DNA of 64,000 bases from assembly GCA_963924565.1 (NCBI GenBank), contig OZ004608.1:34472001-34536000 (forward strand), given 5' to 3'. Under the pieces are notes generated by a model that did not search any database, was not told the DNA's origin, and saw only the letters and a program-made list of their open reading frames with translations. A program made the position numbers and the translations under genes. The stretch comes from Ascidiella aspersa. Taxonomy: Eukaryota. Below are positions 506-56,196 of this stretch, one piece after another. How positions within the stretch are numbered: position 1 is the stretch's first letter; every line of letters starts with the position of its first letter.

Positions 506-3500
506 GTGAGTTTTTTGGAGTAATGATAAAAAAAAATGTTCCAGTTTATTTTAAAAAATCCTTAAGGCGAGGGGCAGGTAGTTGCCGAAAATATCGTATC
601 ATAACCGATGCCCAATGTTCAAAAAATAAATTAAATCAATCAATTTAAATTAAATATTTTTTTAAAACGCTTTTTAACCCAAGTCATTTTGGTCAAATGA
701 TCTAGGTCAAGTTAAGTTATTTAAAAACAGTGAAGTTCACTTTAGTTAAGTCATGAACTTAAGCCATGCTAATATAGGCTACTTGCAGTCGTGCAATATG
801 CCGCTAATTAAGTCTTGTGTTTTTTACCTATGCTAAGCAAGACTTTCCGGCAACGGTTTTTCAACCTTTCAAATGTCTTATTTGATTTTCATGTTTAAAA
901 TCAAGATCGAAAAATTGCGTAGTTTGGGAAAGGGAAATGCTTCGGGCAATTTAAAGACAGCCACAAAAGCGGTAAACGCGTACAGCGGAGCTCCAATACG
1001 CAACTTAACGGGTTATTACTTTTTTGAAGTGATAAAGCTGGCAGACGACGAAAACGACGACCCTGAGTTGAATCTCTACCTGATCATTGGGGTGCCAGCC
1101 GGCGGTTTGCTGCTACTTGCGATTATCTGCATCATGATCAAAAAGTAAGCTCAACTCTTGCTTGAATAAATAAACGTGATTTTGTCTTAACTGATCGTGA
1201 ATCATATTTAAGTACGACCTTTGTAGTAAGCACACCTGCAGGCTAAATAAATAAACATACAACTAATAATGTATAGGCCTAGACCAAGGCTGGTGAGTCG
1301 GAGTCGGACTCGGGACTCGACGGAGTCGGTTTATTTAGCTGGAGTCGGAGTTCGGACTCGAGTAAGACCACGTAAGACTACCCGAGTCCCAAGTCCGACG
1401 TGGGCAGTACGAAATTTCGAAACTGATAATGCCGCGATCTGTAAATTGTAAAGGTGGAATAGAATATATGGTTGAATATATTTAACCATATATTGTGGGT
1501 GGATATATCATATGGCTAGCCTACCTTATAAGTAGATTGCTGTATATCTATATTAACTAACTTACGTAAATGGGAAAAATCAGACTGTAGAGTCGGACTC
1601 GATAAAATAGCACATTTGGCCTCGGATTATTTTTAACCGACTCCGCAGCCCTGGCCTACACTTGCAGTGGCGATACAATGGCCATTAAAAATGGAAAATA
1701 ATATAAAAGTTTTGTGTAGATTTGAAAACAGCCACCTTCACTTTAGGAAATCCTTTCTTCTAATGTTTGTTTTGCGTTTTTGGAGCTTGTAGGTGGGATC
1801 TTTTATAGTTCGACGTAGAATAAATATTTAAAACTGTATACAAAATAGGTGGCATTTTGTGGACTCTTAAAACACATGTTAAGGTAATGGCTGGGGGTTA
1901 TAGTTAGACGTGAAACGAATACAAAGCCCATACAGAACTATAAGCAGCGTTTTGTAAAGATTTCGAATAAATCGTAATATAATGGCTGGAGGTTGTAGTT
2001 AGACGTAAACGAATTTTAAATCCCAAAGATTTGTGTTGATTGTTTCAAATAACTTTTTATTTGTTTTTAATATCATTTCCCTTTTTTCAATGTTAAGCAA
2101 GCTGGGTTGTTTACTGCGCAGTTTGGGTGCCTTAAACACGAATCATGTCGATCTTTATCGAAAAATCTCAACATTTACTGAGCGGATGTAGCTCAAATGC
2201 CAAATTGCGATCACGGTTCGCGATAAAGAATTCAGGAACGCACCGAATACACATAAGGCACTGTTCAGTGACGTACAAAGTAACCACGCTAAACCTACCC
2301 TGGCAGGTGCAATAAGTTTATGACAAGGTAGCACATACATTAGCCGAACACGAACGATTTTTAAACATTAAATTACCTTGCACCAAGGCGGATTATGAAA
2401 CCGCTAAGTACTCTATAGCAGTGATTCCCGCACTGTTTTGCCCCTATATAGCATTTTCCAAACATAATTTGTCGTGTGTTGAGGGCGATTATAAAATTAC
2501 TCTATTGTTTTGGAGCATAATGGTTGGAGGTTGTAGTAAGACGTAATAAGAATGTCAAAGCCCATACAGAAGTAGGTATCATTTTGGACGTTTCGAATAA
2601 CTCTGTTGAAAATGAATAAAGAGTTATTCGAAACGTACAGAATGATACCTACTCTATTGTTGTTCTGTTAAAAGTTTGCCGTGAAATAGATAAGATTTTG
2701 TTTTGTGGACCGCGAGCCAAAAAGTTCGGGAACGACTGCTCTATAGAGACGAGTTCGTATCGAAAGGTCTTGGTCAAGATGATGTCGAGTTACTCGAACT
2801 TTTGGCTTTGCAATTGATTATATCAAACCTGCTAATTTCACAATGATTCTTTTTGTTAAGGTTTGTATGCGACGCAAGGAAAAAACACAAGTTTGTGGAC
2901 GCTAATCAAAACGCGACAACCCAATCTCCCCTACAGACATACGTAAGTGATTAAATGAGCCTGCATTGCTCAGTTGGTAGAGCGACGGTCCCCGGCTTGA
3001 CCGGAGGTCGTGAGTTCGAACCTCAGTGCAGGCCAGTTGTTTTTCTGGCTTGCTCTGCTTGCATCATAGATCGACAGATTCGGCGAGTCTGCGATGGCTT
3101 TTCGGTGTACTATTGATACGGAAGCCGTAATCGTTGGTCATAAAGCAACTTCCGAGGGGCTAGATCACAGATGTTATTAAACACATATGTTTGTGCGTGT
3201 CTTTCATTGATTGATACGGACTGATCCCCCAGTGTGAAGTTGCTTGTACTAACAAAATGTGCAAGTATTGGCGCATGGTTGTTTCTCGACTCGCTCCTCT
3301 CTGAGCCTGCATAGCTCAGTTGGTAGAGCGACAGTCCCGGCTTGACCGGAGGTCGTGAGTTCGAACCTCACTGCAGGCCAGTTGTTTTTCTAGCCTGCTC
3401 TGCTTGCATGATTGATTGACAGATTCGGCGAGTCTGCAATGGCTTTTCGGTGTACTATTGATACGGAAGCCGTAATCGTTGGTCATAAAGCAACTTCCGA

Positions 3501-4760
3501 GGGGCTAGATCACAGATGTTATTAAACACATATGTTTGTGTGTGTCTTTCATTAAGTGATTAAACTACTTCTTTTTTGGATATATTGATTAATTAGGGTT
3601 TTAGTTAGGCGTAGTAAGAAGGTCGAATCCCGCATGGAAGTATAGGGTTTACTTTTTTGGACGTTTCGAATTTATATTCATTCATTTTCAACATGCTAAG
3701 AAAGCACTGATTGACTATATATTTTGTTGGGAGATGGCGGACTACAAATTGATTCAAGTTAGAAGATAGCTCTTTTTGCTAGTTAGGTTACGGAGTGGGA
3801 AAGTAGAATATTCTGTGATTCTTAAATCGCTGGATTACAAATTCATAACAGTTTAAGAATCACTGCTATATCTTGCCATGGATTTGTTAAATGATTGCAA
3901 GTCATAATTTATTACTATTTCATATGGAGTTAGAAATAAAATTATTTTCTAGAATCACCCGATCCAGCGCTTGCACGACCTTAGAACAATAGCTCTCTTT
4001 TTGACGATTATGGCACGAAGTGGGAACGTAAAATATTCTGTGATTATTTGAATCACTGTAGAGCTTATCCTTAAAGGCACAACTTTATGCACAGTATCAG
4101 TGCGTATTCGTGGCTACTTTGCCTTGCCTTGTTTTTTTTAGTCAATGATTGCAAGTCGTTGATTACTATTTCATATGTAGTAAAAAATAATAATATTTTC
4201 AGAATCACCCGATCCAGCGCTTGCACGACCTCCCAGGCATGATGACGTCACAACCAGTTGCCCCCCAACTCATGCACCCCCAACAACGCCAACAGCAACA
4301 CCCCCAACAGCAGCAACACCAACACCCCCAACAGCAGCAGCAGATGCACTACGCAGGGGGAAACCTCCCTCACCCTCACCCGTCATCTCACAGCAGCGGT
4401 GACGCGCCCCCTCGACGCGCCAACAACGTCACTAAGAGCACGCTTGACGTCATCAACGATGACGTCATCACCAGCACGAACTGCGGGATGCAGGGCACTA
4501 TGATGCCGGTCAACGGCGGCTACATGTTCTACTCTCCCGGAGGGGGCGAATTGACGTCACAGGGTAAATTGATGACGTTGGGCAGGCAGGGCGAAGTGAC
4601 GTCACCGTTTGATGACGAAGGCTACGGTACGTCACGGACTCTGGGCAAGAGGACGAGGTCCGGGAAGAGCGCGAAGAGTAAGAAGAAGGTTCCGACCTTA
4701 AAGAGGAAGTTGAGCGAATGGGAGAAACAGCAGATCAGGAGAAATAGCAGGAAGATGTGA
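402..4760 (+). CDS. Partial (3' end) gene for an uncharacterised single-pass membrane protein; exons 402-505, 1030-1144, 2861-2942, 4203-4760
   Basis: Four AG/GT-bounded exons join in frame (intron phases 1,2,0): NASKRLATGKPLRPQYNPYPLRPVVPSKSNNNKI-VIKLADDENDDPELNLYLIIGVPAGGLLLLAIICIMIKK-FVCDARKKHKFVDANQNATTQSPLQTY-NHPIQRLHDLPG...RRNSRKM*. A hydrophobic TM segment is followed by a basic stop-transfer stretch. The 5' exons lie outside the window. Confidence 0.8.
1030..1144 (+). CDS. Membrane-protein gene, transmembrane exon
   Basis: tttttgaag acceptor and AA|gtaagc donor; encodes LYLIIGVPAGGLLLLAIICIMI. Confidence 0.8.
1285..1653. mobile_element. hAT-like MITE with subterminal GAGTCG/CGACTC repeats
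   Basis: Imperfect TIRs caaggctggtgagtcgg / ccgactccgcagccctg; 7/8 TSD gcctagac (1277-1284) / gcctacac (1654-1661); related fragments near 63105-63412. Confidence 0.7.
2419..2738. mobile_element. hAT-like MITE containing a nested foldback-family fragment
   Basis: TIRs cagtgattcccg / cgggaacgactg; exact 8-bp TSD ctctatag at 2411-2418 and 2739-2746. Confidence 0.75.
2861..2942 (+). CDS. Membrane-protein gene, cytoplasmic juxtamembrane exon
   Basis: ttttgttaag acceptor and TAC|gtaagt donor; phases match both neighbouring exons. Confidence 0.8.
2959..3035 (+). tRNA. tRNA-like sequence (SINE head/pseudo-tRNA), copy 1, non-canonical anticodon arm
   Basis: Acceptor stem GCCTGCA/TGCAGGC; A box (GCTCAGTTGGTAGAGC); B box (GAGTTCGAACC); anticodon stem CGGTC/GACCG with an 8-nt loop lacking U33. 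Confidence 0.55.
3305..3380 (+). tRNA. tRNA-like sequence (SINE head/pseudo-tRNA), copy 2
   Basis: GCCTGCA TA GCTC AGTTGGTA GAGC ... AGGTC GTGAG TTCGAAC CTCAC TGCAGGC; perfect acceptor, D and T stems; TTTTT just downstream. Confidence 0.6.
3760..4231 (+). repeat. Degenerate tandem duplication spanning the last intron/exon junction
   Basis: agaatcacccgatccagcgcttgcacgacct occurs at both 3951 and 4201, with homologous upstream intron sequence. Confidence 0.85.
4203..4760 (+). CDS. Membrane-protein gene, last exon (Q/H/P-rich cytoplasmic tail)
   Basis: attttcag acceptor at 4201-4202, in frame with ORF 4221..4760; GC-rich coding-like composition. Confidence 0.85.
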   Translation, partial: NHPIQRLHDLPGMMTSQPVAPQLMHPQQRQQQHPQQQQHQHPQQQQQMHYAGGNLPHPHPSSHSSGDAPPRRANNVTKSTLDVINDDVITSTNCGMQGTMMPVNGGYMFYSPGGGELTSQGKLMTLGRQGEVTSPFDDEGYGTSRTLGKRTRSGKSAKSKKKVPTLKRKLSEWEKQQIRRNSRKM

Positions 4761-10900: not shown

Positions 10901-13900
10901 TCCAATTAAAACTATTTAATTTACTCCTAAAATCGTTATCTCACCTGAAAATGCCCGTTATTCTTATTTCGCAATTCTTTAATGAAGAAAAATTTTAATA
11001 AAAACTGAAACTGTTATTTTAACTGCATTTTGCTAAAAAAATACAATTTTTTTAAGAAAAAAAGGAAGTCACATTGCATTATGCTTACCGAGTGTCCGTC
11101 AAATGTCTTTACAGGTCGGTCATGCCCTAACTGACAGACGTGGATGCTCATATCGGTCGAACAAGAAGCAAAGCACGTGTTGTTCTGCCAGTCGACATCT
11201 AGCGCCGGGGCTGAGAGAAAAAAAGCAATCGCTAGATGGTGCGCACGAGCAAAACTGTGTTTCGCGAATAAAGTTATACAGGGAAAGCCATATGTATTGA
11301 AAGGCTGGGTCGTCTGTAGGATGGTTAATTCAAATTGCATATGCTAGAAGTAGAACTGAGATTACCTATTGAACTGGTAAAGGTTTGAACAGTTTTTAAC
11401 TGTTGTGAACAAGGCAATTAGAAGTCATTTGCAAAAATAACAAGTCAAGTCCCAGACCAATGCCTCAATTGCCCAAGGCAAGTTATTATTAGAGCAAGTC
11501 AACTAGAAGTCAAGTCAATGACATAAAAAAACAAATATTAAACTATTAAAATTGGTGAACATGTTCAGTTAAGAGTAATATCTCAACAAAAAACTAACAA
11601 AAACGCAGCATACAGCAAGCAAGTGGTTTTATGTGCAAAACAACAAAATACCAATTGTCCATAAACCTTGGTCAAGTCATTAAATAAACTATTAGTCAAA
11701 ATAGTGACTTGAATAAGGTTATTGACTAAAGTCATTAACAATAATGGTTTGTTGTTGCACATACTTTACTTGCTTTAACGCAAAGCGTTTCAAACGAATC
11801 TTGCCCAGTCATAGCGTGCGCTTTTTTTCCAATGTACAATATCGCATGTCTAGGGTAAACCCATTTTATTTGAGCTTCTAACAATGGATAGGCCTCAAAC
11901 AGCGCACACAAATACTGGACTTGAAAGTTACGTCATCCAGCATTAACTCAAATACACAAAGGGCCAGTTTACAATAAATAGAGAGGAGCCGGGATATTTT
12001 TATTGCCTTTACAGCGTCAGAAAGAACAGTTTGTAAAAAGGGACACTTTAGGTAACCTTTTAAACCGGCTAATGGATGTAAAGAAACCTCAAAAAGGGTG
12101 ATAAATTTTTAAGATATCCTTAAAACAGCGGAAAACAGGAACTACAAAGTACTTCACTTGGGGCAAAACTAATTTAACTCAAACCTTTGTGGCGCAAAAA
12201 GAATACAATAAAACAAAAACAGGCCTAATTATAAAGCGGCTTGAATCCCTTTTTTACTAGTTCAGCATTGTTTTACAGTGCACAAAAGGACACTGCAGAA
12301 AAAGTATTGGCTGTTTGACAGACAGTTTTTTAATCCGCCTAATGTGCGTAAAAACATGAAGTAAGAATGGTAAAAAGCCTTTAAAATGGCCACAAAAACA
12401 GCTGGATATCTTGCTGTAATTTAAAACCAATAAAACACACAAAGTTCATTCAGTTCATTTCCGCATTCTGCCAGATCAGCAAAACAGCCCGCCCGCATTT
12501 ACGATGAACGGAAACTCATTATCAAGTCGAGACGAGACCCATTTTGGCCGTTGGGTGGCGCGCCAGAGCGCAAAAACGACTTTTACTTTTGACTCGGGGG
12601 ATTTCGCCTACGTGTTTCGCCTTCAGTTTAAGTTCCGGACGAGTTGACACAACTATGCGGCTGCTATTGATTTTTCTGGCCTGAACGCTTCGCTAGTTGG
12701 TGTATCGTCACGGCGGCGTTTCGAAAGGTCAAAAAATATGCCTGTGGTGACTCACCAACGTGTTTAATTCCTCCTTCAAAATATTGTTTTTTGCACGTCA
12801 GACGTTTCATAACAAGTCGTAAGTTATTAGTCTTAAAATGCCACTCTTTGCAAAGGCTTCCATATTTGGACTGAAAGTTCGTTTGCTTTAAATAGAAAGA
12901 AAATGACATTTGCCAGTTGATCAGGAAATAAATTGATCCACTTTACCATTTAACGACCGACGTTTCAAACGTTTAAACCTGGTTAACAGAACAACAAGGA
13001 ATTTACTTTACCCCCCTTTGAATATTTCAAGACGTAAATCCATAAAGGAGGTTATATTTTTGGAGCATAATGGTTGGGGGTTTCAGTTTGACGAACTAAG
13101 AATAGCAAAGCCCATAGAGAAGTAGGCAAGATTTTTTATTGTTGAAAATAAATAGAGAGATAACCGAAGCCTAAAAATTTACCTACTTCTATATGGGCTT
13201 TGTTATTTCTATTAGATCAAGGTTGTAACCAGTTTAACACTAAAGCAGTAGAATTTTTTTCAAAACGCAGTCAAATTTATACACCACGAAAATAGACCAA
13301 GCCACAAAGCAAACAGCATTTGAAAAACTGATTGTAGAAAATCCGTGGCTAAAAAGCCTTAGGTATCCAAAGCATATGAGCAATAGAGACAAATCGCTGT
13401 ACAACAAGCAACAGGCCAAGTAAGTGGGTGACAGGCTTAAGCATCCGGGCTACCTCCGACAACAGAAACAGTTTCCCAGAACCAGGTCGACCGACAGAAT
13501 CGCTCAAGCGTGAACAGAGTGGCTGCTCGTCGCCTGATTGGTCGGCTTGACTTTGGTTGCGCCAGTCAGACAAGTTAATAGGGCTGGTTTAAAAGGTCTC
13601 GTTTTTCATGTTTTTTGTCTTTCAATCGGTTGCAATTTTCTACCTTGTTTTGTGTTTTAATCCTGTCCATTTGAAAGCTTGCAAGTATATTGGTACTTAC
13701 AGTAGGTACACTTAACCAATTTTACCAGTTTAACGTTTTATTTTTATGACAAAGACTTGATGACTTGACTGAGGCTTGACTTGGGCAAGTGATGACTTGT
13801 TATTCACCCAAAACTGACTTGGACTTCATTCATTTATTTTTTTTCGAAAACGCTTTTGCATCTTTTTCTCTTTTAGCCATTTTAAGCATTTTGTATTTTT

Positions 13901-16900
13901 TCTTTGGCACAAAAATGGCAGAAGACCAGACTGTTGCACGTTGGGCAAAATGCTTTTCAAACAACCATGAAAAATAAAAAAAAGTCCAAAACAAAAAGCA
14001 GACTGCATTTAAAATTAATTAAGGGCCGAACCTAACGCATAAGTTTGTAGAAAAAAACAGGCCAAGTGACGTTAAACCGGCTATGAACAATAAGATGAAG
14101 GCACCAAACAGGCGATTTCCGAAGCGGAAATGTAACTGACGTGTTTTTAAGTATTTTTCCGCTTTGTCAGTCAATCAAGCGTTTTTCATAAGCTTTGAAG
14201 TTTCATATTGTCGTGTGTTTTATTTTTGCCTCATATTTTGAGCGGATCCAATTTGTCCAACTTACGTTGACTGATTTGTCTCGATAGCACGGTGTCTGAT
14301 CATACCGACGCGAGCAGAAAAGCACGATTGGAAGACTTTTCTGGTAAATTAGTCGAAAAAATCTCAGTAAAAAAACACAAAAATAAGTCAAAAACGATTG
14401 AACAAGACCCCAAATAAGAATAGACCAAAGCATAATAAAGCCTATTAAATCTTTGTAGCATAATGGTTACAGGTTGTACTAAGACGTAATAAGAATATCA
14501 AAGCCCATACAGAAGTAGGTATCATTTTGAACGTTTCGAATATCTCTTGTTTAAAATGATGTTGAAAGTTATTCGAAAAGTACAAAATAACACCTACTTC
14601 TGTATAGGCTTTGATATTCTTACTACATCCTATTAAATCCTTAAGAAAAAAAGGGCAATTTGAAAGGCCAAAGCGTGAAGTGAAATTTGAGCTTACTCGA
14701 ATACCCACTTAGTGACGTATACAAGTACACACGTCATACATAGACACCCGCTGCAATTTTCAAAGCCAGGGCCAAGAGCTACAGTGAAACGTAAGCTTAT
14801 CAGCCGCATACAATTTCTTTGTTTAGCAGGTGCCAAAGCTGATTGGAGCGTGCGGGTTTAGTTGCTGGTAAATAGACGAACGTCATTTGAGACGTGCTTG
14901 AAATTTTTTGTGCGAGTATTACTGTTCAAGGCCAACTATGAAAACGCTAACCGTTTACTAACTGTATACAAGCGCAACGCTTAAATACTTTCTCAATTTT
15001 AAAGCTGTTTTTTACGACTGTCACTGAAGGTGTTTAAAAAATGAAATCGTAAATAAATATATTTCAAAGCACGGTGAACTTAATTTAAACTAGTATATTT
15101 TAACTGTGGTGCTTTACAAAAAAAATAATAGGGATGTCACTCCGAATGAGAAAGCACAAAAACAACACACAAGGTAAAAATTTAAAAATTGTTGCTTTCA
15201 TACAATGATTTCCAATACATCGTATTCTATTCCTACACCGATACGCGATATTTTTAGGAAAAGTATCGCGATACGATCCAAATAACGGAGCCCAATATAA
15301 ACCCTTCTACTGCTTTGAAAATATTTCCATTCCAACCGTTTTCTTAATCGTGCGTCATATGTTCATGACCTCTTTAAAATCAATCGTCCTTAACGGCCAT
15401 GTTACAAACCCGGCCGAGTTTATCAGAGTTCTTTGAGCGTCGCAAATCAAATCGTAAAACGAAGCGACGTCGCTTAATGGTTTGTTTACCAGTGCAGGGC
15501 GCTTTACTGGGCAACGCAAACAGCAAAGGGCGAACACCATGGCGTTATAGGCAAGGGGAAGTAGTGGCTAATGTGGTGTTGTATCGTGCGTAATGCAGCT
15601 GCTAAATAAGGCACAGCGTTGGCCGCCTAACGCCAGTTATAAGCTTCTGTCTACCCGCGCTTTCCGACCACGGTTATGTAACGCGTTCTAAGTGTTAGGT
15701 TGGATTCATTTTTGTTCGGTAAGATGAAAATAGCTTGTAGGGTTGCCACCAAATGTTTTGGAAAACAAATTCAAAAATTTTTGAATAAAATTTGACGGCT
15801 TACTAAACATCTAAAATTCGATTGCTTGAAGTTTTTTGACAATATCTCCTAAACGAAACAGTATATTGCTATGGTCAACACAAAAAAAGTCTTTTTTTAA
15901 TGTTAGTGACAGCACTTTCTAAGAACATAACCACGAGCTAGAATAAAATAAATTTAAAGACTCTTAAAAAAGTCATAGTCTTCTCAATATGTAAATCATA
16001 ACCAGTAGGGCACAACTTGAGATTACGTGACAACAAAGGCAGATGGTTTGAACTTTTTAAAGGTTGTTTTAAAGGGTTTATGCAAAGGACGTCGCAATAC
16101 AAACAACAGCATTCGCCACTTAGTATGATACCACTCATGGGTAATTCGTTTTTCATGCCTAGTTTAAAGTTTGTGGAAAAATTAACACCAGAAGCAGAAA
16201 CGCATTGAGATACAGTTGGAAAGGATATCTTCCTATCAGACTGTATGTTTATTAAAATTGCAAAACCGCAACTAGCTTTAGATTACGTCACAACATAAGC
16301 GGTATATTTGAATGCTGATAAAAATGTTGAACGATCCGGAAAAATAAAAAACTAGTCCATCGCAAAGAAATCATTGTATTAGAAGCTCTTATCAAAAAAT
16401 AAAAAAATAAACTGGCAACAAATCTAACAACTATAGGTAAAGTCTCAAGAAAGAATAGTTGTTGAACACACAACACTTTTAAGACAACATAGACAACCTT
16501 GTTATTAGTGGCCTGTTAGATGATAGGGGTCAGTTTTCACTAGGCTGTTTGAATCAACTATACAAGGCAATACAAAGAAGCTATAGAGGGTTTATTGTCG
16601 GAACAAGCTACACTATCGGCTGAGAACCCTAAGGTTAATTTGCATCACAATGGGGTCTTCGGGATAATGGAACAACAAACCCATTTGGGAAAAGCCATTT
16701 TTGTGGAATCAGTTAAGAAATGGCGGAAAAACAACAATTCAACCTTGCTTTGAAAAGTGTTGAATCTGTCTTAACCGAAAAAGTTGCGGAGCCGCTGACA
16801 GATGGAAAAGGAAATGTGTAGAGTTTAAAATGCCCATTCAACACAAGCGCCCATAAATGGAGAACGTGGCCTGCGTGGGTTAAAGCAATTGTTCTCAAAA

Positions 16901-19900
16901 CTTTTTTTTTTTTGCGACGCCTTTGGAAACGTTTGTTGTATTTGCGACGCACCAAGCGATATGAAAGTTTACTAGCGTTTTATTGTATATGTTGATAAAG
17001 AATATTTCAAAGCCTATACAGAAGTAGGTATCATTTTGAACGTTTCGAATAACTCTTCATTTACAACACGATTTTGATACCTACTTCTGTATGTGCTTTG
17101 ATATTGTTACCACGTCCTACTACAACCTCCAACCATTGTGCTGCAAAGTTGATCGACGCCCTTAGTAAATTAAAGCGATGCACCAGAGCGTCGCAACGCA
17201 CATTTTAAAAACCACTGGGTTAAACGATGCTTCAACGCTAACGCACAAAATGACAGTCTGTCTGTGCTGTGTGGTTAAGGCATTTGTCTCGGTTTTTGAC
17301 AGTTTGGCTTTGGACAACGCTAAACAATTTTAAAATACCTAAACACAAAAAACTGCCAATTGTCTACTGTAGTTATAGATGTAGGGTACACTTTTAAACG
17401 ACGGTTACTAGTTATTAAAACACATTAACAAACCAGTGTTTAAGTTTAAAAGTAGTGAGAATATCAACGCCCATATAGAAGTTGGTACCATTTTGAACGT
17501 TTCAAATATATTTTGATTCATTTTCAACATGGTGAGAAGGCACTGATTCTATGTGTTTAGTGTATAGTACTGAGGCAGAGTGCAGAAAAGAAGGACACAG
17601 GGGGAAATCTAACAAGAGATGTTTCAAACGTTTAAAATGCTACCTACCTCTGTATGGGCTTTGATATTTCTCCTACGCCTAACTATAACATACAAACATT
17701 ATGCTCCAATGTGTAGTTTTAGTTTGAGCAAGTTTATAGATACGCTGCGTGTTTCGAAACCGAAAAACAACATAATGCATTCAACAACAAATCGCAGTTT
17801 GTTTCCTCCCAGACAACAACTGTGGGATCTAAAACGCGCTCCCAGAGTTAAACACGAGCACACACGCGCACACACGCGCACACACTCACACACACACACG
17901 CGCGAGGCAAATTCCACAGCACTATGCAAACAGCATTTTGGCAAGTAAAAGACCAAAGGCCCGACTAGAAGCGTGTTGGTATTTACCCTGATGGAAAGGA
18001 AATTGTTGCTTAGCGTCTCCTGTGTTGGCGTCCCATATTATGGTAGTCTTGTCAACGCCAGCGCTCAGGATGTAGTTGCCCTTTTTGTTCCATTTCAAGG
18101 CGAAAATAGGCCCTTTGTGCTGGCCGAGGACGTTTTCGAGACGGCCTGAAAAAATGACATAAAAATATTTTTTTCTTAGACGGATTTTTTTATAACATCA
18201 CAAAGGTTTAGATTAAAAACTTAAAAAAAAAACTTTTTTGGTTTAAAATTATTTGAAATTGTAATTGCATTGGATGAGTAATTTTGGAAAAGTCCATTAA
18301 AATTGCAAGTTATACACTTGAATTCCAGCTTTTAGCAGATTTCAATAGTGGGTTTACTTTAATTAGGGTGTTTTAAATAAAGCAATGAGTATTTTTAATA
18401 AATTTCACCATAGGTGACAAAAATTAATTGAGACTTACAATTATAACAAAACATCATGCCACAAAACCTCCAAGTTAGTTTTAAAAAACAACCATAAAAT
18501 CATGCAGTTGTATAACCACAACATAGATTTTTTCAGAATGGTTGATCAATTAAAAAATGGTTGTAAAGCTAACAGGCCAACACACAAAATAATGCTGATT
18601 GCTTGTAATGTGTAAGTGTGATTTGCAATTTTGTTGGGTACTTGATGACATTATTCTACTTGCTTATATTCTGATGTATAGCATCCTAATTTAATATTCA
18701 AAATCTTCTGGCTATGAATCATAGTATTAATCAATAAATAATAATCTATATTTAAAATTCAGTCTAACGTTCATTATTTTTTTCAGAAATATAGCACAAA
18801 CATATTTATTATTTTGTTCTATAAACCTATATTATAAATGTACAATTAACAGGAGAATTCCACAAACAAATAACTTACCATTGGTGCCCCAAAGTCTTGC
18901 ATAACCATCGTAAGAGCCGGTAGCAAGAAGGGTTCCATTGCACTAAATACAAATATGAATAGAATCAATCATGTATGAAGGGCTTTCATGGGTAAATTTG
19001 GTTTGGGAATTGACGATACCAATACAAGATGCTGATGATGAAATGCCCTTTATTCAATATTTAACCCTTATAATCAAAAACTAATATATTCCAGGCAAAA
19101 AGTGACAGTCTGATATAAATTCTGGCATATAAAAATAATAATTGATAGATTAAGCATGGGGTATGTTGCATAAAACAATCACAATTAATCATATTTTTTT
19201 TATGGATTTCAGTGAGTTTATGGCCTAAAATGTCTACAAATAAATTGCTTTAAATCAAAATTAAAACCAAGCAATTTTAAACAAGTCATATGTCGGAAAA
19301 TATATGTCTTTTTTTTCTTACTTATTCGCAAATTAATTTCTATAGCAGTTAATTGTCGGTGGTAGTACTGCGTAAGTGGCACGTGCCACTTTTGCCAAGG
19401 CCTTGTAAATTAAACCATCAAACGATGAACAAAGGACTTGTATTTATCAAGTGCTAATCTAGCTCGAGAGTTTAAGAGCAAGTACATAGGTTGCCAGTCC
19501 AGATCATCGGCCGGAGCCGGAAAACAGCCCCAGGCAAAGACAGCTGACTCTTTCAAGTCTCTGAGCATCATTTCAGGTTAATCTTTAACTGGCCAAGTAA
19601 GGTTCTAGTCAGAATTCCAAACTTGGGCGTCTACATGGCACGACTAAGATCTCAATACTTACCTAAACCAGTACGTAAAATAAACAAAGCTTCATCTATT
19701 TTTTGGCTTAAAAAAATTACAATTTCCATACCTAAAGAAAGCTGCTTTGGCTAACAATAACAACAAAGTTTTATTAGCACAACAAAATTTTGCTCAAATG
19801 CACATGGGTAAAAATGGACTAAATTTGATTATTTATTTGAATGATGGGGTGTATAACAGTGTTGTAAATGTTTTTATAGAAATTGACTTGCCTCAATGGA

Positions 19901-22900
19901 TAAAATAGCTTGACTATACTAAATTGTTTTGACTCACTTTTTAGAAAAATTCAAGTAATTTTAAAATAACTTGTTACAACAGTGACACACACTAAGTTAA
20001 TGGAAAAAACTTCTCAAAATCTTGCTAAAAAAGTCCTTTGAGAAGGTTTGACAAACACAGACTAACTTGTTACAACAGTGACACACACTAAGTTAATGGA
20101 AAAAACTTCTCAAAATCTTGCTAAAAAAGTCCTTTGAGAAGGTTTGACAAACACAGACAGTCAACAAACTCACGTTCCAGTCGAGTGAGGTTACGTCTTT
20201 GTTGCTGGGCACTTCTTGATTCCCGTCCTTGATGCAATGCCTTAGCACAAGTTGCTGGGGGGTCGAGGAGGGGGTTGAGGTCGACGTTACCGTGTCCTCT
20301 TTGAGGTTCCAAATGCGGGCCGTTGAATCACCCGACCTGATTTAATAAAAAAAATTGAAAATCGTTTTTTTTTATAAATTATGCATTTTTAAGTGGAATA
20401 CACTTATAAAAATTGGATAATTTATTTTTTTTAAATGCAAGCCGTCAAATCATCCGACCTTATTTTAAAAAAATATTTAAATAAGTTTTTACAATGATAA
20501 ATATGCAGCATTTATCAGTGACACATTGCATGTAAAATTTTGATGTGATTTTAAGAGATTTTTGCCCCCAACCCTGATGATATTTAACAAACACATTATT
20601 AATGTTAAAGTTAGAACAATGTAACTGGATTTTATGTTAGGATAACCACTTCTAACCTCAACGAAAAAAATTGTGTGAGTATTTTTCAATTCGTTTTTTT
20701 CTTATTCAGTACTAACAAAAAAAACTAAAAATAAGAATAAAAACCTTCTTTGGCATCTTGCTGGTGTATTGCACATTTTTTTTTAGCTTTTTCAAACATA
20801 TTAGGATTAAAATTAACAATTTACTGAATATATATAGAAATAAACTAAAATCTCAACCAGAATTCCTTTCAAAAAATGTCACAAAAATGTGTAAACTACA
20901 TATCTGCTACCAATCTAGGGCATTTTTACCCAGAAGCCAGAAGGTCTTGCGTTGGGTTCCAGGCACAAATAAACACCTCGGAATCATGTCCTCGGAGAAC
21001 GGTTGCGTTGTTAAAAGACACTTTAACATCACTGTTCGTTGTGTCCACTTCCATTGGCTCGTTAACGTCGACCCGTGAATTGGGGACACCGCCTACACCT
21101 AAATGTAACAGTGAGAATTACTTTACAAGATAGAAATTAATTGCAGGCTGGCAGAATCTTGCCAGCCTTCTGGTGACAAGCATTTTTGGCGAAAATTCTT
21201 CGGTTTTTGGTCGCCCCCTAAACTTAAATGATGTGTTCACCTGAGGATCTATGAACCTTGCCATGTTTTGGCGATAAACAAAGTTATTAACAAGTAAATT
21301 AGACAACAAAACGTAGCGCCGAAGGCGCAAACATTTTTGTGACATTAAGTCATTAACAAGTACATAAAAAAAAATAAGGGACATGTAAAGGTACAACCAT
21401 GGGCCTGGGTATGTACGTACATGTCTAGCCTGGTAGATCCTTAATATGCTGATGCGAAGGTTATACCTGTACATTTAACAGGGATGGGGAATTCAACTGA
21501 ATAAACAGGAAATCAACTCAATATAGAAGTACTTGCCAATTTAAAGTAAAACTGCCAACACGTCACAATTGTATGATAAAAAGCGTGTACTTTTCAAATA
21601 ACAAACAGTCTATATGCCTTACACTGGCTTTTTCTCACCAAACAATGTGCTTCACACTACCGTAACTTTTTTCAAAATGACACAACAAAATTAATTTCTG
21701 CCAATTGTAGTGTGTAATGTTATTACATATTTCCAGTGTTAAAAAATGGATGTAATTAAATTTTTGTGGAAACAACCACAGTGTATTTTGTAAATTGGAT
21801 GTTGGAAAAAAAATTTAAAACATTTTTTTTTATTTTTTTTTTTACTTGAATTTTTTTTTTGCACCAATTTCTTCGGTTTTCTGGCTGATTCTTCGGCCGA
21901 CATAGTCGCCAAGTCGCCAGCATTCTGCCATACTGATTAATTGATATCATTTTTTATGGTTTCTGTCGCAAACTAGGTCGGGACACAATCCCCAAAATAG
22001 CAGCTAAGGATAAGGATTGACTTTACGTTCTCGAGCTTAACAGTTGTTGGACATTATAAGGTCTACCATCATTAAATATGTGACAATTTCCTAAGTTTTT
22101 TGTTTTGTGTTTGTACAGCTGAGGTAATTTTTTTAAGTTCTTATGTTTAAAATATAACAAAGTGTAGGTTTTAGTGGACGATAAAAGCCATAGTTTTCAA
22201 AATTAGAAGGGCGATCATCTGATTTCATCCACAGACATTGATAACAACAATTTTTCTTTTAGCCACACTAAAGATAAAGCATAAAGGCACTACCGTGCAA
22301 CGTATGATCACCGCCGTTGGTCTGGGGTTCCTGTTTAAGGTTGGTTGTGGATGTGGCAGCGGTAACAACTGTGGTTATCGCCGCGCTGATGCCAGTGTTT
22401 GGCGCCGTACAAACGACAGTGGGTGCCACCGACACCATCGGCACTGGCGTGTTATTGGTGGCGGGAACGTTTGTGGCGGCACTGTCACCATTGTTTTGCG
22501 TCGCGTTATCTTCGTTGATTTGTTGCTGCTTCTCAGCTTGCTCTTTTTTGATGGTCGCCATTTTTTCACGAAGTTGTTGCTGCTTGGCAAGGACAACGTC
22601 CGGCATGACAGCGTCGACCAGAGACAGGCTTTCACTGAATCTACCCTCGAACATCATTCCGTCCTAGTAAAATTTGAAAAAATAAAATAAACTGTGGAGC
22701 ACAACGGTTGGATGTTGTAGTAAGACGTAATAAGAATAACAAAGCCCATAAAGAAGTAGGTAGCATTTTAAAATTTCAAATATCTCTTTATTTATTTACA
22801 ACATCTAAAGAGTTATTTGAAACGTTCAAAATGATACCTACTTTTGTATGGGCTTTAATATTCCTATTCTAAAATAAATTGTATTAAAAAAATATTAAAA

Positions 22901-24823
22901 TTATTTTAAATAATCAGATGTGCCACTAAAATCAAAATTGTAGTATAACTCAATATGAAAACTGTTTTCAAGCAAACCAAACATCAAAAAAATAACAATA
23001 TCCAAAAATATTTTTCAGTACATCGTGAACCTTCAGAGGGGCTAACCGAAATCAGTTTATCAATCAATTAATGTGTTCAGTTTAGAAAAAGTTTGAGAGT
23101 AATATGTTACAGCATACCTAATTTCCATAGCAAGGTGTACTACTTTTCCAAAAAATATTGTGTCACTTCACTTAAGAGCACTGTACATAAGCACGCCATA
23201 AATGATAATAAAAACATGTTTTATGAAAAGTGAAACTCCAGTTTAATATATTCGGGTTATCTATATTTCCATTTTTACAAAGAGCTCTACAACTGGCAGC
23301 AAAAAGTACAGTGTCATGTTCATTTAAGACCGCTGTATAAGGCTAGCCATAAATGTAGCAACAAAATTTAAGTGCAGAGAACAATGTGATGTTGATTGCA
23401 TTTTCTAATGTCAGGTAAGCCCCTAGCAATACTACATCCATGCATTATGTCCTATCGATTAAAATTTGCATGCAAGAAATATTATCCATCTAAATGTCAT
23501 AGTGGTCTCCCTAGTGTCTGGTATGGGGAGTCTGTGGTCTACATTAAGCTTGAGGCAGCAGTTTTTCACTGAATTAACAGCAAAACAAATTTAACATCTG
23601 GCATTACTTGAATCATATATAAAGAGATACAGAAAGGCAGATTAATAGTTGAATTTCAGGTTTTTTTAACAAAGCTGGGAAACGGTGCACTTTTAAACCT
23701 GTTTACCTCGTTTATGCTAATTTCAGCCTCCACGTATTGCAGGCCTTTTTGAATGATGGAAATGAGGGCAGCTGGTGGCACCAGGGCTCCATTGATGTTC
23801 GATTGGCTGATGTGGGATTCCAAACCAAACACAAAGGCACTATGCTGAAAACCTGAAGAAAAAATGGTTCTTAAAACGAAACCAACTTTAAATGGCAAAC
23901 AATTCATACTTTTTTTTAGTACACTATTCATCAATCTTTAATGTAGCTTGATAATGAATCAAAAAGCCAAAAAGGTCGAGTAGATCGACATCATCTAAAT
24001 GAATAAAACGCTTCATTCAAATTTGTATCATCTTTAGAAATTACTTCTCAGTCGCATTAACTAAAGATGACACAAGTTCGTATCGAAACGTCTTTATCAA
24101 GTAGATGTCAATCTACTCAACCTTTTTGGCTTTGCAATTCATTATCTTATTGTTTTTTTTTAAATATGATATTTCAGATATTAAATTGATATGTTGTCTG
24201 GTGAGAATAACTTAGTTTTAAAGCATATGAGCCCAACAAGTGAAAGTCATGTAAGGTCAATTTGGCAACTCAATGGGTAGGATGTGGAATATTTGACTTT
24301 GAAATGATGTAGCCTGTTCAAGTGTATTAATTGAAATGGCAAGATTGGGTTCCCATTTAGAACATGTGTTTTCTAATCCAGACATAAGAGGATCTTTGTT
24401 AACTTTAAAGTTATAAGCTGTGAAGTTCCAAATATAGTTTAACTTTACCCATCCTGCGCTAGATTGAAAGGCACACACAAATCTTTCACACTGGTGCCAT
24501 GCAAACAGAGTGCCTAAGAGGTATTGGAAAATCAATGTACGTTCAATATTTTATTTGTCATTTAGGTTTGCATTTGCCCACATCGTATTTCACAGAATTT
24601 TACAAAATATAATATGTCTCGATTTCAAATCACAAATAAAATCAGATTTCTTTGAAGATGGTTTCTGTTATGGTGTTGCTTAAATAGTTCTATAAAATGT
24701 GGTGTAAAACGGTTAATTTAGGCTAGAGTTAAAAAAACAACAAAGAAAGAAAAAATATAACTTACCAGATTCCTGAAGGTAGCGGTACACCAGAAAGTTG
24801 ACTTCATCTGATGTTATACTCAT
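7953..24823 (-). CDS. TBL1XR1: F-box-like/WD repeat-containing protein TBL1X/TBL1XR1 (ebi) homolog, NCoR/SMRT-HDAC3 corepressor subunit; 13 coding exons, 1749 nt, 582 aa
   Basis: N-terminus [68 protein letters not shown] (LisH/F-box-like); WD40 repeats [51 protein letters not shown]; C-terminus VCVLDLRK*. All junctions are GT-AG and in frame. Confidence 0.97.
8411..8512 (-). CDS. TBL1XR1: TBL1 coding exon 12 ([20 protein letters not shown]...ASDGT)
   Basis: gttgcag / gtgag boundaries; 102 nt. Confidence 0.95.
9253..9418 (-). CDS. TBL1XR1: TBL1 coding exon 11 ([10 protein letters not shown]...CVHIWSTQ)
   Basis: gcattcag / gtaaa boundaries; 166 nt. Confidence 0.95.
9798..9885. repeat. Imperfect inverted repeat (small MITE-like hairpin) in a TBL1 intron
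   Basis: atagatagaaa..cgctcttctggtgtacaacaag ... cttggtttacaccagagagcgactttccatctat. Confidence 0.55.
10058..10185 (-). CDS. TBL1XR1: TBL1 coding exon 10 (VWSMKHD...NLMLAS)
   Basis: gttccag / gtaac boundaries; 128 nt. Confidence 0.95.
10558..10632 (-). CDS. TBL1XR1: TBL1 coding exon 9 ([25 protein letters not shown])
   Basis: attaccag / gtaggt boundaries; 75 nt. Confidence 0.95.
11089..11210 (-). CDS. TBL1XR1: TBL1 coding exon 8 ([11 protein letters not shown]...KTFDGHS)
   Basis: tttctctcag / gtaagc boundaries; 122 nt. Confidence 0.95.
14455..14630. mobile_element. Abundant foldback/MITE family copy (ggagcataatggttggaggttgtag...cccatacagaagtaggtatcattttgaacgtttcgaata)
   Basis: Self-complementary arms; related copies near 15, 1790-2060, 2510-2650, 3590, 6640, 13060, 17000, 17460-17710, 22695, 36600 and 62070. 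Confidence 0.7.
17000..17147. mobile_element. Foldback/MITE family copy
   Basis: Same consensus as 14455-14630, with inverted arms (cagaagtaggtatc / gatacctacttctg). Confidence 0.65.
17987..18145 (-). CDS. TBL1XR1: TBL1 coding exon 7 ([19 protein letters not shown]...QQFPFHQ)
   Basis: ttttttcag / gtaaat boundaries; 159 nt. Confidence 0.95.
18879..18942 (-). CDS. TBL1XR1: TBL1 coding exon 6 ([21 protein letters not shown])
   Basis: gtatttag / gtaagt boundaries; 64 nt. Confidence 0.95.
19968..20158. repeat. Near-perfect ~95-bp tandem duplication in TBL1 intron 5
   Basis: aacttgttacaacagtgacacacactaag...gtttgacaaacacagac appears twice head-to-tail. Confidence 0.9.
20174..20336 (-). CDS. TBL1XR1: TBL1 coding exon 5 ([10 protein letters not shown]...[10 protein letters not shown])
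   Basis: aaatcag / gtgagt boundaries; 163 nt. Confidence 0.95.
20930..21098 (-). CDS. TBL1XR1: TBL1 coding exon 4 (...[24 protein letters not shown])
   Basis: acatttag / gtaaaa boundaries; 169 nt. Confidence 0.92.
22294..22663 (-). CDS. TBL1XR1: TBL1 coding exon 3 ([24 protein letters not shown]...GDHTLH)
   Basis: ttttactag / gtagtg boundaries; 370 nt; overlaps ORF 22268..22657. Confidence 0.9.
22696..22870. mobile_element. Foldback/MITE family copy about 30 bp from the TBL1 exon 3 acceptor
   Basis: Same consensus with inverted arms. Confidence 0.65.
23707..23852 (-). CDS. TBL1XR1: TBL1 coding exon 2 (GFQHSAF...EISINE)
   Basis: ttcttcag / gtaaac boundaries; 146 nt. Confidence 0.95.
23946..24147. 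mobile_element. Inverted-repeat MITE (second family)
   Basis: gataatgaatcaaaaagccaaaaaggtcgagtagat ... atctactcaacctttttggctttgcaattcattatc; half-copies at ~2750-2826 and ~28640-28710. Confidence 0.65.
24766..24823 (-). CDS. TBL1XR1: TBL1 coding exon 1 ([19 protein letters not shown])
   Basis: ATG at 24823; G|gtaag donor; probable UTR acceptor ttcacag at 24934-24935. Confidence 0.95.
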
Positions 24824-54352: not shown

Positions 54353-55719
54353 TAACAATTACAATTACCAGAGGAGCTGTTTTTGATTTATATGTATGTA
54401 GTTTCTTTATTTTTGCAATATTATGATTATAAAATGTATGTTTCTACTCTGAACTAAAACTCATTAATGAATAAATACAAAGTTTTCCAAAAACAAATTA
54501 AAACGAAACAAGAATATTTGGTGCGTACAATTTTTTTAGGCTTTCGTTCAAAAACGGTAGGTGCTCACTTAAGTTACGATAGTATGAAGAACGTTTGAAT
54601 CTTGTACTGTTGTGAATAGCTATGTTTTAAGAGTTTACTAACCTCCTGATTTTAATGCGGTGTCAATAAACTGTAAGTAGATCTACAAAAATAAACTGTA
54701 GAGTTATATAAAAACTATTCTACTGTTATAGTGATGGAAAGTAAACAAAAGCAAACCGTTCAAAAGCTTTTGCAAGTTGAATTATTTTGTTGTTCAAGAG
54801 GCAGTGAAATAGCCGCAGGGCATGCTTTGATCTCATAACTTAAATCCGCAAATGATTTAAAACGCACTTAAAACACTGGATTATAAGACTATTTTTTGTG
54901 TGCCTTTAGGGCAAAAATTAGTTTTTTTGTTCTACGAGCAATATTGCGTGAATTGGTTAAGTTTTGTTGTCCAATTTTAAACCTATATGTTAGCGTATTG
55001 TATGCAAAAAAGTTTGCGGATCTTAATTATACCGGCGACGTAAATAGGTATTGTAAGTTAAGGCCGACGCCTCCTTTAAGTAAACGAATTTCGAGGTATC
55101 ATGTTTTATTCACGGTCAACTTATGCATTATTGAACAGCAAGTAATGGCACGCCTGCTGCACTGTCATACTGTGGTCGTTTTAATTAACGTTTGGGGTCA
55201 AGGTATTGGTAACCGCCACGCAAACTTATATCAATTTTCTGCAAGATATTATATGGGCATCCAATGGAAATAATGTTTAGTTTTTAATTAAAGCAATCTT
55301 ACAAACGTATGCCGCTTGTAACAAACGTATGCCGCTTTGTCTCTTAAACGATTTTTGTGAAATATTTGTTCATTTAAAACAGGGAATAATCAGTTTTGGT
55401 TTATTTCCCTTTAAAGAGGTTATTTCAAGATTTTTTTTAGAAGAAACTGTACCATTTTTAATTGCTTTTAAAATTGTTGTTGCCATTTGAATGTAAATAA
55501 ATACGAGATTTTTGTGCAGTTTTGTCAAAACTTCTAGTAATTGGTGCAAAATTGGTTGATATACTGTAAATATTTTTCTTTGCCACTAGTAAAAAGATTT
55601 ACGAGCAATTAATTTAGAATTAACACTTCACGATTTATCTAACAGGTTTTGCAAAGTACTAAAACCTATTTTCAAAAACTTCCTGCTTGCAAAAAAACAC
55701 CGAATAACGCAAGAAAAAA

Positions 55720-56196
55720 ATGGACAACAAAGAACAACCAGTTCCCCCACCTTACCCGCCCCAACAGCAGGGGTACGTGGCCCCCGTCCAGTACGGCATG
55801 AACCCCCCGGCGCCCCCATCCTACTCAGCCGTGGTGGGGCAACAGCCCCAATACGCCCCAGTACCCACTCAACCCCACCAAGTAGTCGGAATCCAGCAGC
55901 AGCAGCAGCCTGCTATGGTCGGTGTACAGCAGCCTGTTTATGTCGTCACAAACCAACCTGTGCGCATTCACTCGCGCCACCCTACCGCCCTCACGTGTCC
56001 GCACTGCATGGGCGCCGTCGTAACCTCGACACGGTCTGAAATTGGGGCAGCCGCCTGGCTTAGCTGCTGTTTCATCGCGCTCTTTGGCTTCTGGCTAGGG
56101 TGCTGCCTTATTCCCTTCTGCATTCCTGACCTCCAAGACACCTTCCACGAATGCCCCAACTGCCATAAGGTTATCGACGTCTACAAGCCTCTCTAG
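55720..56196 (+). CDS. LITAF: LITAF-domain protein paralog 2 (158 aa, intronless CDS)
   Basis: PPPPY and PPAPPSY motifs; CPHC...FWLGCCLIPFC...HECPNC. Confidence 0.95.
   Translation: MDNKEQPVPPPYPPQQQGYVAPVQYGMNPPAPPSYSAVVGQQPQYAPVPTQPHQVVGIQQQQQPAMVGVQQPVYVVTNQPVRIHSRHPTALTCPHCMGAVVTSTRSEIGAAAWLSCCFIALFGFWLGCCLIPFCIPDLQDTFHECPNCHKVIDVYKPL

Follow-up and report, generated by a model that had tools for sequence, protein, structure and literature searches.

The stretch of DNA considered here, called the window, comprises 64,000 nucleotides of the Ascidiella aspersa genome (GCA_963924565.1, contig OZ004608.1, positions 34,472,001 to 34,536,000 of the forward strand), and our subject is a short mobile element carrying a tRNA-like module that lies directly behind an exon at 2956-3552 (all coordinates of this locus are on the forward strand). 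The host exon of 82 nt (2861-2942) joins in frame, with an open reading, between a transmembrane exon and an exon starting at 4203. The element is flanked by an exact 12-bp target-site duplication (TSD; 2944-2955 and 3553-3564) that spans intron positions +2 to +13, and because it starts only at +2 the GTAAGT donor (2943-2948) is left intact. Two direct repeats (2956-3207 and 3302-3552), 95.6% identical (241 of 252 columns) and 346 nt apart from start to start, enclose a spacer (3208-3301), and this layout and the duplication agree with a preliminary description of the locus. Each repeat begins with a tRNA-like unit (2959-3034 and 3305-3379) that matches Rfam model RF00005 at 40.1 and 49.2 bits respectively (gathering score 29) and is called by ARAGORN, and each unit is followed by a run of five T (3040-3044 and 3385-3389), again as first reported. 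The preliminary description also stressed insertion at a 5′ splice site; the duplication does overlap the donor region, but the choice of position seems incidental, given an unharmed donor and the AT-rich targets of the family (75% AT). The insert is a 5′-truncated copy covering 1.7 turns of a monomer of 346–354 nt (348 nt in the majority form), and its repeats are not long terminal repeats (LTRs). We consider it probable that this copy stems from a 348-nt unit, tandem and non-coding, that bears a tRNA-like module and is likely copied by the enzyme of a Penelope-like element (PLE), the family B described below, and probably from a circular monomer RNA.

Read in terms of the monomer, 2956-3301 is one whole unit of 346 nt and of subfamily-1 type, whose 5′ end is the point of truncation, and 3302-3552 is a partial second unit. 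The spacer is simply the remainder of the monomer; the fold predicted for the unit has it paired to the tail, and in this copy it lacks 3 nt near 3221. The family has two fixed 3′-end sites, A at unit positions ~153–158 (3109-3114 in the first unit) and B at ~251–256. The segment between them (3111-3207, and again 3456-3552) is homologous to the tail of family B, and position 3552, at site B, would be where reverse transcription of the window copy began. The TG and CA termini noted earlier are present on the window repeats and yet are not boundaries of the family, whose 5′ ends are scattered; the CA falls inside the fixed 3′ site at ~252. The insert is moreover a mosaic, its second repeat carrying four subfamily-2-typical variants at unit positions 91–137, and the divergence between the repeats is therefore unusable for dating the insertion.

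With the insert as query, the genome (309 Mb searched) yielded 3,700 candidates, many of them head-to-tail arrays with a period of 346–350 nt and up to ~12 units. The spacer alone gave 1,427 first-look candidates genome-wide, and is thus not unique to this locus. Exact genome matches numbered 1,141 for a 32-mer in the tRNA module and 497 for a 30-mer near the 3′ end. A second subfamily of 354 nt is ~87% identical, and older relatives are also present. A metagenome search with one 31-nt pattern of the element returned no matches. Six loci with older relatives (L376 at G000:C4:30091500-30096500, L286, L290, L304, L305, and L314) carry one to four extra 140-nt modules before the body, each consisting of a tRNA-like unit plus ~60 nt and together resembling a small tandem tRNA-gene array; at L376 a CTGG loop variant is common to the four pattern matches listed.

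The insertion signature was read from 162 clustered insertions, of which 105 share 94% identity or more with the majority monomer and form the young set. These were chosen by best matches and by a motif near site B, and the sample is thereby biased toward site B and toward arrays. A TSD of at least 8 nt was found in 70 of the 105 young insertions and measures 12–14 nt in 48 of those 70, with a mode of 13 nt. Their outer 3′ ends lie at site B only in 45 cases, at A and B in head-to-head arrangement in 39, at A only in 8 and elsewhere in 13. No A+A and no B+B insert occurs among the 105, so all 39 with a fixed site at both ends pair one A with one B; a single A+A was seen among 34 copies of 84–94% identity, and a second sample, drawn via the tRNA module and partly overlapping the first, contained A+B in 20 of 58 with neither A+A nor B+B. 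The 5′ ends are scattered, and reverse-transcription stops cluster at unit positions 150–155 (15 of 166, against 2.9 expected), which makes site A also a hot spot for stops of copying from site B. Stops at unit 1–4 (3 of 166, 1.9 expected) and at the tRNA 3′ end, unit 78–87 (7 of 166, 4.8 expected, not significant), show no such pile-up; an apparent excess of 15 5′ ends at the tRNA start proved to be an edge artefact, with 3 left once the reference was rotated. Most inserts are shorter than two units (72 of 105), the copies are circularly permuted, tandem, and inverted, and a few B ends bear one extra short repeat. A fixed 5′ head and simple-repeat 3′ tail of the type seen in short interspersed elements (SINEs) is thus absent, and a chance read-through SINE dimer, one of the options first suggested, finds no support. 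Twin priming is familiar from L1 elements. We infer that the A/B pairing of ends and the stop pile-up are what two primers on one RNA would leave, with B-primed copying halting at site A. Two internal start sites of reverse transcription have been used to define the PLE tail experimentally (PMC11167929).

Several families of PLEs with minimal hammerheads are present in the genome. One of them, family B, has reverse transcriptase and GIY-YIG matches and, in a near-identical tandem of 3,422-bp units, an open frame of 748 codons. Its 3′ ends fall at 353–356 and 429–444, ~85 nt apart, and form head-to-head inserts; its TSDs are 11–14 nt in 8 of 25 non-edge clusters, compared with 12–14 nt for the element. 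The family B tail between the two sites aligns in register with the A–B segment of the element. Under strict scoring, no shuffle out of 500 reached the alignment score of four of seven queries (all subfamily-2 copies), and the remaining three queries had 1, 7, and 9 such shuffles out of 500. A degenerate tail motif taken from this alignment gave 267 matches and its reversed control gave 0; the 100 matches listed are all element-type or family-B-type. The in-register homology, the shared motif, and the matching two-site ends and TSDs make family B or a close sister the likely helper, which would mobilize the element in trans. Two fixed 3′ ends, inverted 5′ copies, a tail shared with an autonomous PLE and a helper-like TSD length are also the marks by which a PLE-mobilized non-autonomous element is recognized. 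Other families were considered as helper and set aside: the loci of families C–F have no BLAST match to the element, and families A, C, and D have no in-register tail match under strict scoring (the E and F tails fell outside that test). At L218/L219 (G000:C2:30626000-30643000) there are at least three near-identical 3,422-bp family-B units with the 748-codon frame intact, a candidate active helper. Minimal hammerheads also occur in five or more further PLE families, at L083-L094 and L196-L215, and A, C, and D among them have two 3′ ends and tails of ~36–100 nt.

The A and B boxes of the tRNA module are intact, and the module aligns to the tandem tRNA-Met(CAT) genes of the host with leader and T-rich trailer included, differing by two extra nucleotides in the loop; the comparison covered tRNA-Met genes among the host tRNA types. 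Since the T-rich trailer is part of the alignment, the T-run directly behind the head, which at 3040-3044 lies in the loop of a predicted hairpin and resembles the 3′ flank of tRNA-Met, can be read as captured gene flank. Fixed differences between subfamilies 1 and 2 amount to 1 of 76 positions in the module versus 52 of 253 elsewhere (Fisher p 9e-6), and the conservation extends beyond the promoter boxes to the anticodon arm. Its likely cause is selection acting on the module in its entirety; module exchange could be an alternative. The cloverleaf is 96.7% paired across 20 copies, and its covariation score is weak, being reached by 113 of 500 shuffles. The host itself has a large tRNA-Met(CAT) tandem array with a 154-bp period and some units mutated at the anticodon (L266-L285, G000:C1 from 26,980,001); its pattern has 221 matches genome-wide, and the 100 among the matches listed all lie in this array.

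As to the template, among 16 subfamily-1 arrays with at least two whole units, 11 have a variant common to all of their units, four equal the reference and one is mosaic, and such private variants, present across an array, reach a depth of 11 units. They agree, as does the absence of a run-off point, with a monomer circle copied in rolling fashion, but do not prove it. The predicted circular fold of the monomer has −125.5 kcal/mol (z −4.4 against 60 shuffles), and in three of four public runs the unit closes as a 378-nt contig (348 + 30), a result in which circular RNA and tandem DNA are indistinguishable. The contigs of these four runs reach neither the host exon nor the sequence flanking the insertion, and give no view of an empty site or of splicing there. 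The earlier suggestion of 1.7 turns of a tandem or circular template, in the manner of retrozymes or Penelope pseudo-LTRs, draws support from the arrays, the TSDs, the two fixed ends and the family B signature.

The proposed course of insertion would be as follows. The GIY-YIG nuclease of the helper would nick both strands 12–14 nt apart; the primers from the two nicks would start reverse transcription within the RNA, one at site B (~252) and one at site A (~155), giving head-to-head inserts, and extension of only one arm would give a simple insert such as the window copy. The enzyme would run round the monomer circle and, as it circles one monomer, arrays would be homogeneous from the outset. 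The tRNA module would provide an RNA polymerase III (Pol III) promoter and probably also a processing signal. Several observations weigh against this proposal. Family B matches the tail with moderate identity, highest in subfamily 2 and low in the young subfamily 1 (9 of 500 shuffles), and a sister family outside the sample may therefore be the helper; the family D tail also scores weakly under looser scoring; an initial alignment under permissive scoring told nothing about any family, B included; the stretch upstream of site A shows weak homology (15 and 119 of 500 shuffles), and the spacer of the element has no family-B homology. The two repeats of the window insert differ at 11 columns. The units of array L156 alternate between two variant sets with period 2, and homogeneity of arrays could also come from DNA-level expansion or multimeric source transcripts. 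Covariation support for the overall fold is weak (5 of 78 pairs, term −1.14). Pol III would need to read through T5 and T4, and both its transcription of the unit and the circle are predictions. The period-2 alternation in L156 is the pattern expected of a template that is a dimer, or of a duplicated dimer.

The explanation that survives best beside this one keeps the Penelope-driven insertion and dispenses with the circle: a linear multimeric read-through transcript of Pol III or of host Pol II would serve as template, long arrays would grow or be homogenized at the DNA level, and the tRNA would be only a promoter, making the element a PLE-dependent SINE. The intact A and B boxes and the 72 of 105 inserts of less than two units suit it, the RNA circle is itself a prediction, and PLEs are described as inserting as partial tandems, with hammerhead cleavage dispensable for insertion in vitro (PMC11167929). 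It accounts poorly for private variants shared by all units up to 11 deep, for the 3 stops (1.9 expected) where transcription would presumably begin, which form no run-off peak, and for the conservation of the anticodon arm besides the promoter boxes. We take it as a serious possibility, though one that falls short of being probable.

If the template is a circle, its origin may lie in the anticodon arm, which consists of a 5-bp stem and the loop CCGGCTT (2986-3003 in the first module, with the extra C there). Because CCGG is self-complementary, two neighboring arms can fold as stem, 3-nt bulge, 4-bp helix, 3-nt bulge and stem, that is, in the bulge-helix-bulge form (BHB). This is the predicted minimum-energy dimer (−19.1 kcal/mol versus −5.1 per hairpin), with a C-G proximal pair and the 4-bp helix between the 3-nt bulges of the textbook BHB form (PMC6614914, PMC10485636). 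In a 1.3-unit transcript the forced BHB lies 0.3–0.8 kcal/mol from the minimum with a central pair probability of 0.09–0.12, part of which is generic to any tandem repeat. The loop CCGGCTT is found in 79 of 92 young entries, and among older relatives selected for a TAT bulge CCGG occurs, counting by eye, in 55 of the 100 matches listed, 20 more being one CpG-type change away. Cuts after base 2 of each bulge, in the same phase, would free exactly one monomer with ends that RtcB could join. The route to the circle would then be pairing of two neighboring anticodon arms, cleavage by TSEN (the endonuclease of tRNA splicing) and closure by RtcB, and the element would be a ribozyme-free retrozyme, a Penelope parasite in which the hammerhead was replaced by a captured tRNA gene with a self-complementary loop and the monomer is excised and circularized as an “intron”. 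The predicted fold resembles the substrates from which TSEN and RtcB make tRNA intronic circular RNAs (tricRNAs) in its C-G proximal pair, 3-nt bulges, 4-bp helix, and 6-nt distance between the proximal C and the 5′ cut (PMC6614914; PMC10485636). It differs in that a whole monomer, flanked by two half-tRNAs, would act as the “intron”, in a helix made entirely of G-C pairs, and in an arm that exceeds the one of host tRNA-Met by one pair. Against this lead stand the chance rate of palindromes (16 of 256 4-mers) and the longer arm, whose two extra nucleotides depart from the distance ruler; eukaryotic TSEN measures from the tRNA body. Over-strong helices cut tricRNA yield in flies (PMC6614914). 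Stops at the predicted TSEN cut (unit 39–41) are five overall, with 1 of 10 among the stops new to the later sample where ~0.9 would be expected, and the initial excess there did not recur. We offer the BHB route as a tentative lead, more doubtful than not.

A circle could also be made otherwise, for instance through cleavage at one tRNA module after another by RNase P or RNase Z and subsequent ligation, or by an unrecognized ribozyme. The high pairing of the cloverleaf is in keeping with this, and ~75 nt separate the tRNA 3′ end from site A downstream of it, comparable to the ~70 nt of the predicted hammerhead cut in family B. Yet stops show no excess at unit 1–4 or 78–87, the conserved CCGG loop is left unexplained, and Rfam found no ribozyme in the window insert or in three arrays, the arrays giving only tRNA and sub-threshold hairpin families; this origin of the circle appears unlikely. 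An atypical or decayed hammerhead, with the CUGAUGA at unit 265 as its core, would make the element a retrozyme, and the CTGATGA of subfamily 1 does have a stem I of 4 bp and a stem III on its flanks, arranged in type III order. However, the motif has no GAAA/NUH partner (G15.1-C16.1 is found instead), it reads CTG-NN-GA with variable middle letters in subfamily 2 and in older copies, 3 nt of it are lost in the window copy, its presence is explained by pairing with the tail, and Rfam is silent here as well, so that we rejected the candidate and regard such an origin as very improbable. A TRIM (terminal-repeat retrotransposon in miniature) of the Helenus type with tRNA-bearing LTRs, in favor of which the window copy reads TG...CA, spacer, TG...CA (a tRNA-bearing TRIM analogue was among the options first suggested), is for practical purposes refuted by TSDs of 12–14 rather than 4–6 nt, by random 5′ ends with no fixed LTR boundaries, by frequent inversions and long arrays, by a spacer that belongs to the repeat unit and by the contrast with Helenus itself, which has 4–5-bp TSDs, a site for primer binding (PBS) and a polypurine tract (PPT) (PMC10886601).

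Returning to the PLE-mobilized tandem unit, its closest known counterparts are the non-LTR retrozymes of animals (PMC7229834; 10.64898/2026.07.22.740005), which share non-coding tandem units of 150–450 nt, dispersed multimers, long TSDs, an apparent lack of PBS and PPT, a stable predicted circular fold and derivation from PLEs, the last as reported in the 2026 preprint of Li, Clavereau, and Pollet (10.64898/2026.07.22.740005). Unlike them, the element contains no type I hammerhead in its unit and carries a tRNA-like Pol III module; the word tRNA is absent from the available text of that preprint, and its 9 mentions in that of PMC7229834 all concern tRNA ligases and tRNA processing. With endonuclease-containing (EN+) PLEs that have a two-site tail, including non-autonomous Chlamys elements such as MRC1, it shares two internal starts of reverse transcription, partial tandems, inverted 5′ copies and a 3′ end similar to that of the autonomous partner (PMC11167929; PMC8557442). 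It differs from them in the lack of an open reading frame and in a tail of ~97 nt versus 30–40 nt, and a tRNA module is not mentioned for non-autonomous Chlamys elements in the available sections of PMC8557442. Helenus, or TRIMp3, likewise has a tRNA-like sequence inside the direct repeats of a short non-autonomous element, but is mobilized by an integrase (PMC10886601); the end of the spacer here consists, by eye, of pyrimidines and is not a PPT. tRNA SINEs (PMC3531059) and SINE-derived satellites (PMC10702118) share the tRNA-related head, a segment derived from the partner and more than 100 copies, whereas the element is a permuted tandem with no simple-repeat tail and a PLE rather than a long interspersed element as partner, and each of its arrays is one insertion inside one TSD. 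Among the papers listed by literature searches, none had a title or abstract opening that described a tRNA-bearing PLE-mobilized tandem element or a TSEN-circularized retroelement; Repbase, Dfam, supplements, and subscription papers lay outside that search and may hold the family.

Elsewhere in the window, at least five LITAF-like genes are clustered on both strands at 39647-61260, with a Pfam zf-LITAF-like match confirmed for 55708-56193. On the minus strand, 11014-23937 holds exons of a gene with a WD40 profile match, which we take to resemble TBL1/ebi. Palindromic repeats resembling miniature inverted-repeat transposable elements, with ~80–90% identity, have many copies in the window (2509-2653, 14446-14644, 16998-17725, 22679-22868). 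Some small contigs of the assembly look bacterial, since one (L082, G000:C11) encodes what we take to be bacterial-type Rho-like and UvrC-like proteins and another (L081, G000:C35) holds what is presumably a 16S rRNA-like sequence.

Taken by its sequence features, the element appears to be a real, young, PLE-dependent and ribozyme-free tandem retroelement with a tRNA module, which works like an animal non-LTR retrozyme but stands outside that group for want of a hammerhead, and which is neither a Helenus TRIM nor a standard SINE. With it, the PLE-dependent non-autonomous elements come to include a form with a tRNA head and no ribozyme, which screens built on hammerheads inevitably overlook. 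In the strict A/B pairing of ends and the stop pile-up at site A, the genome keeps a clear trace of insertion from two primers on one RNA, and this trace bears on the open question of how the inverted structures and tails of PLEs originate. Should the BHB route prove true, the family would represent a mobile element that uses the tRNA-splicing pathway to make its circular template.

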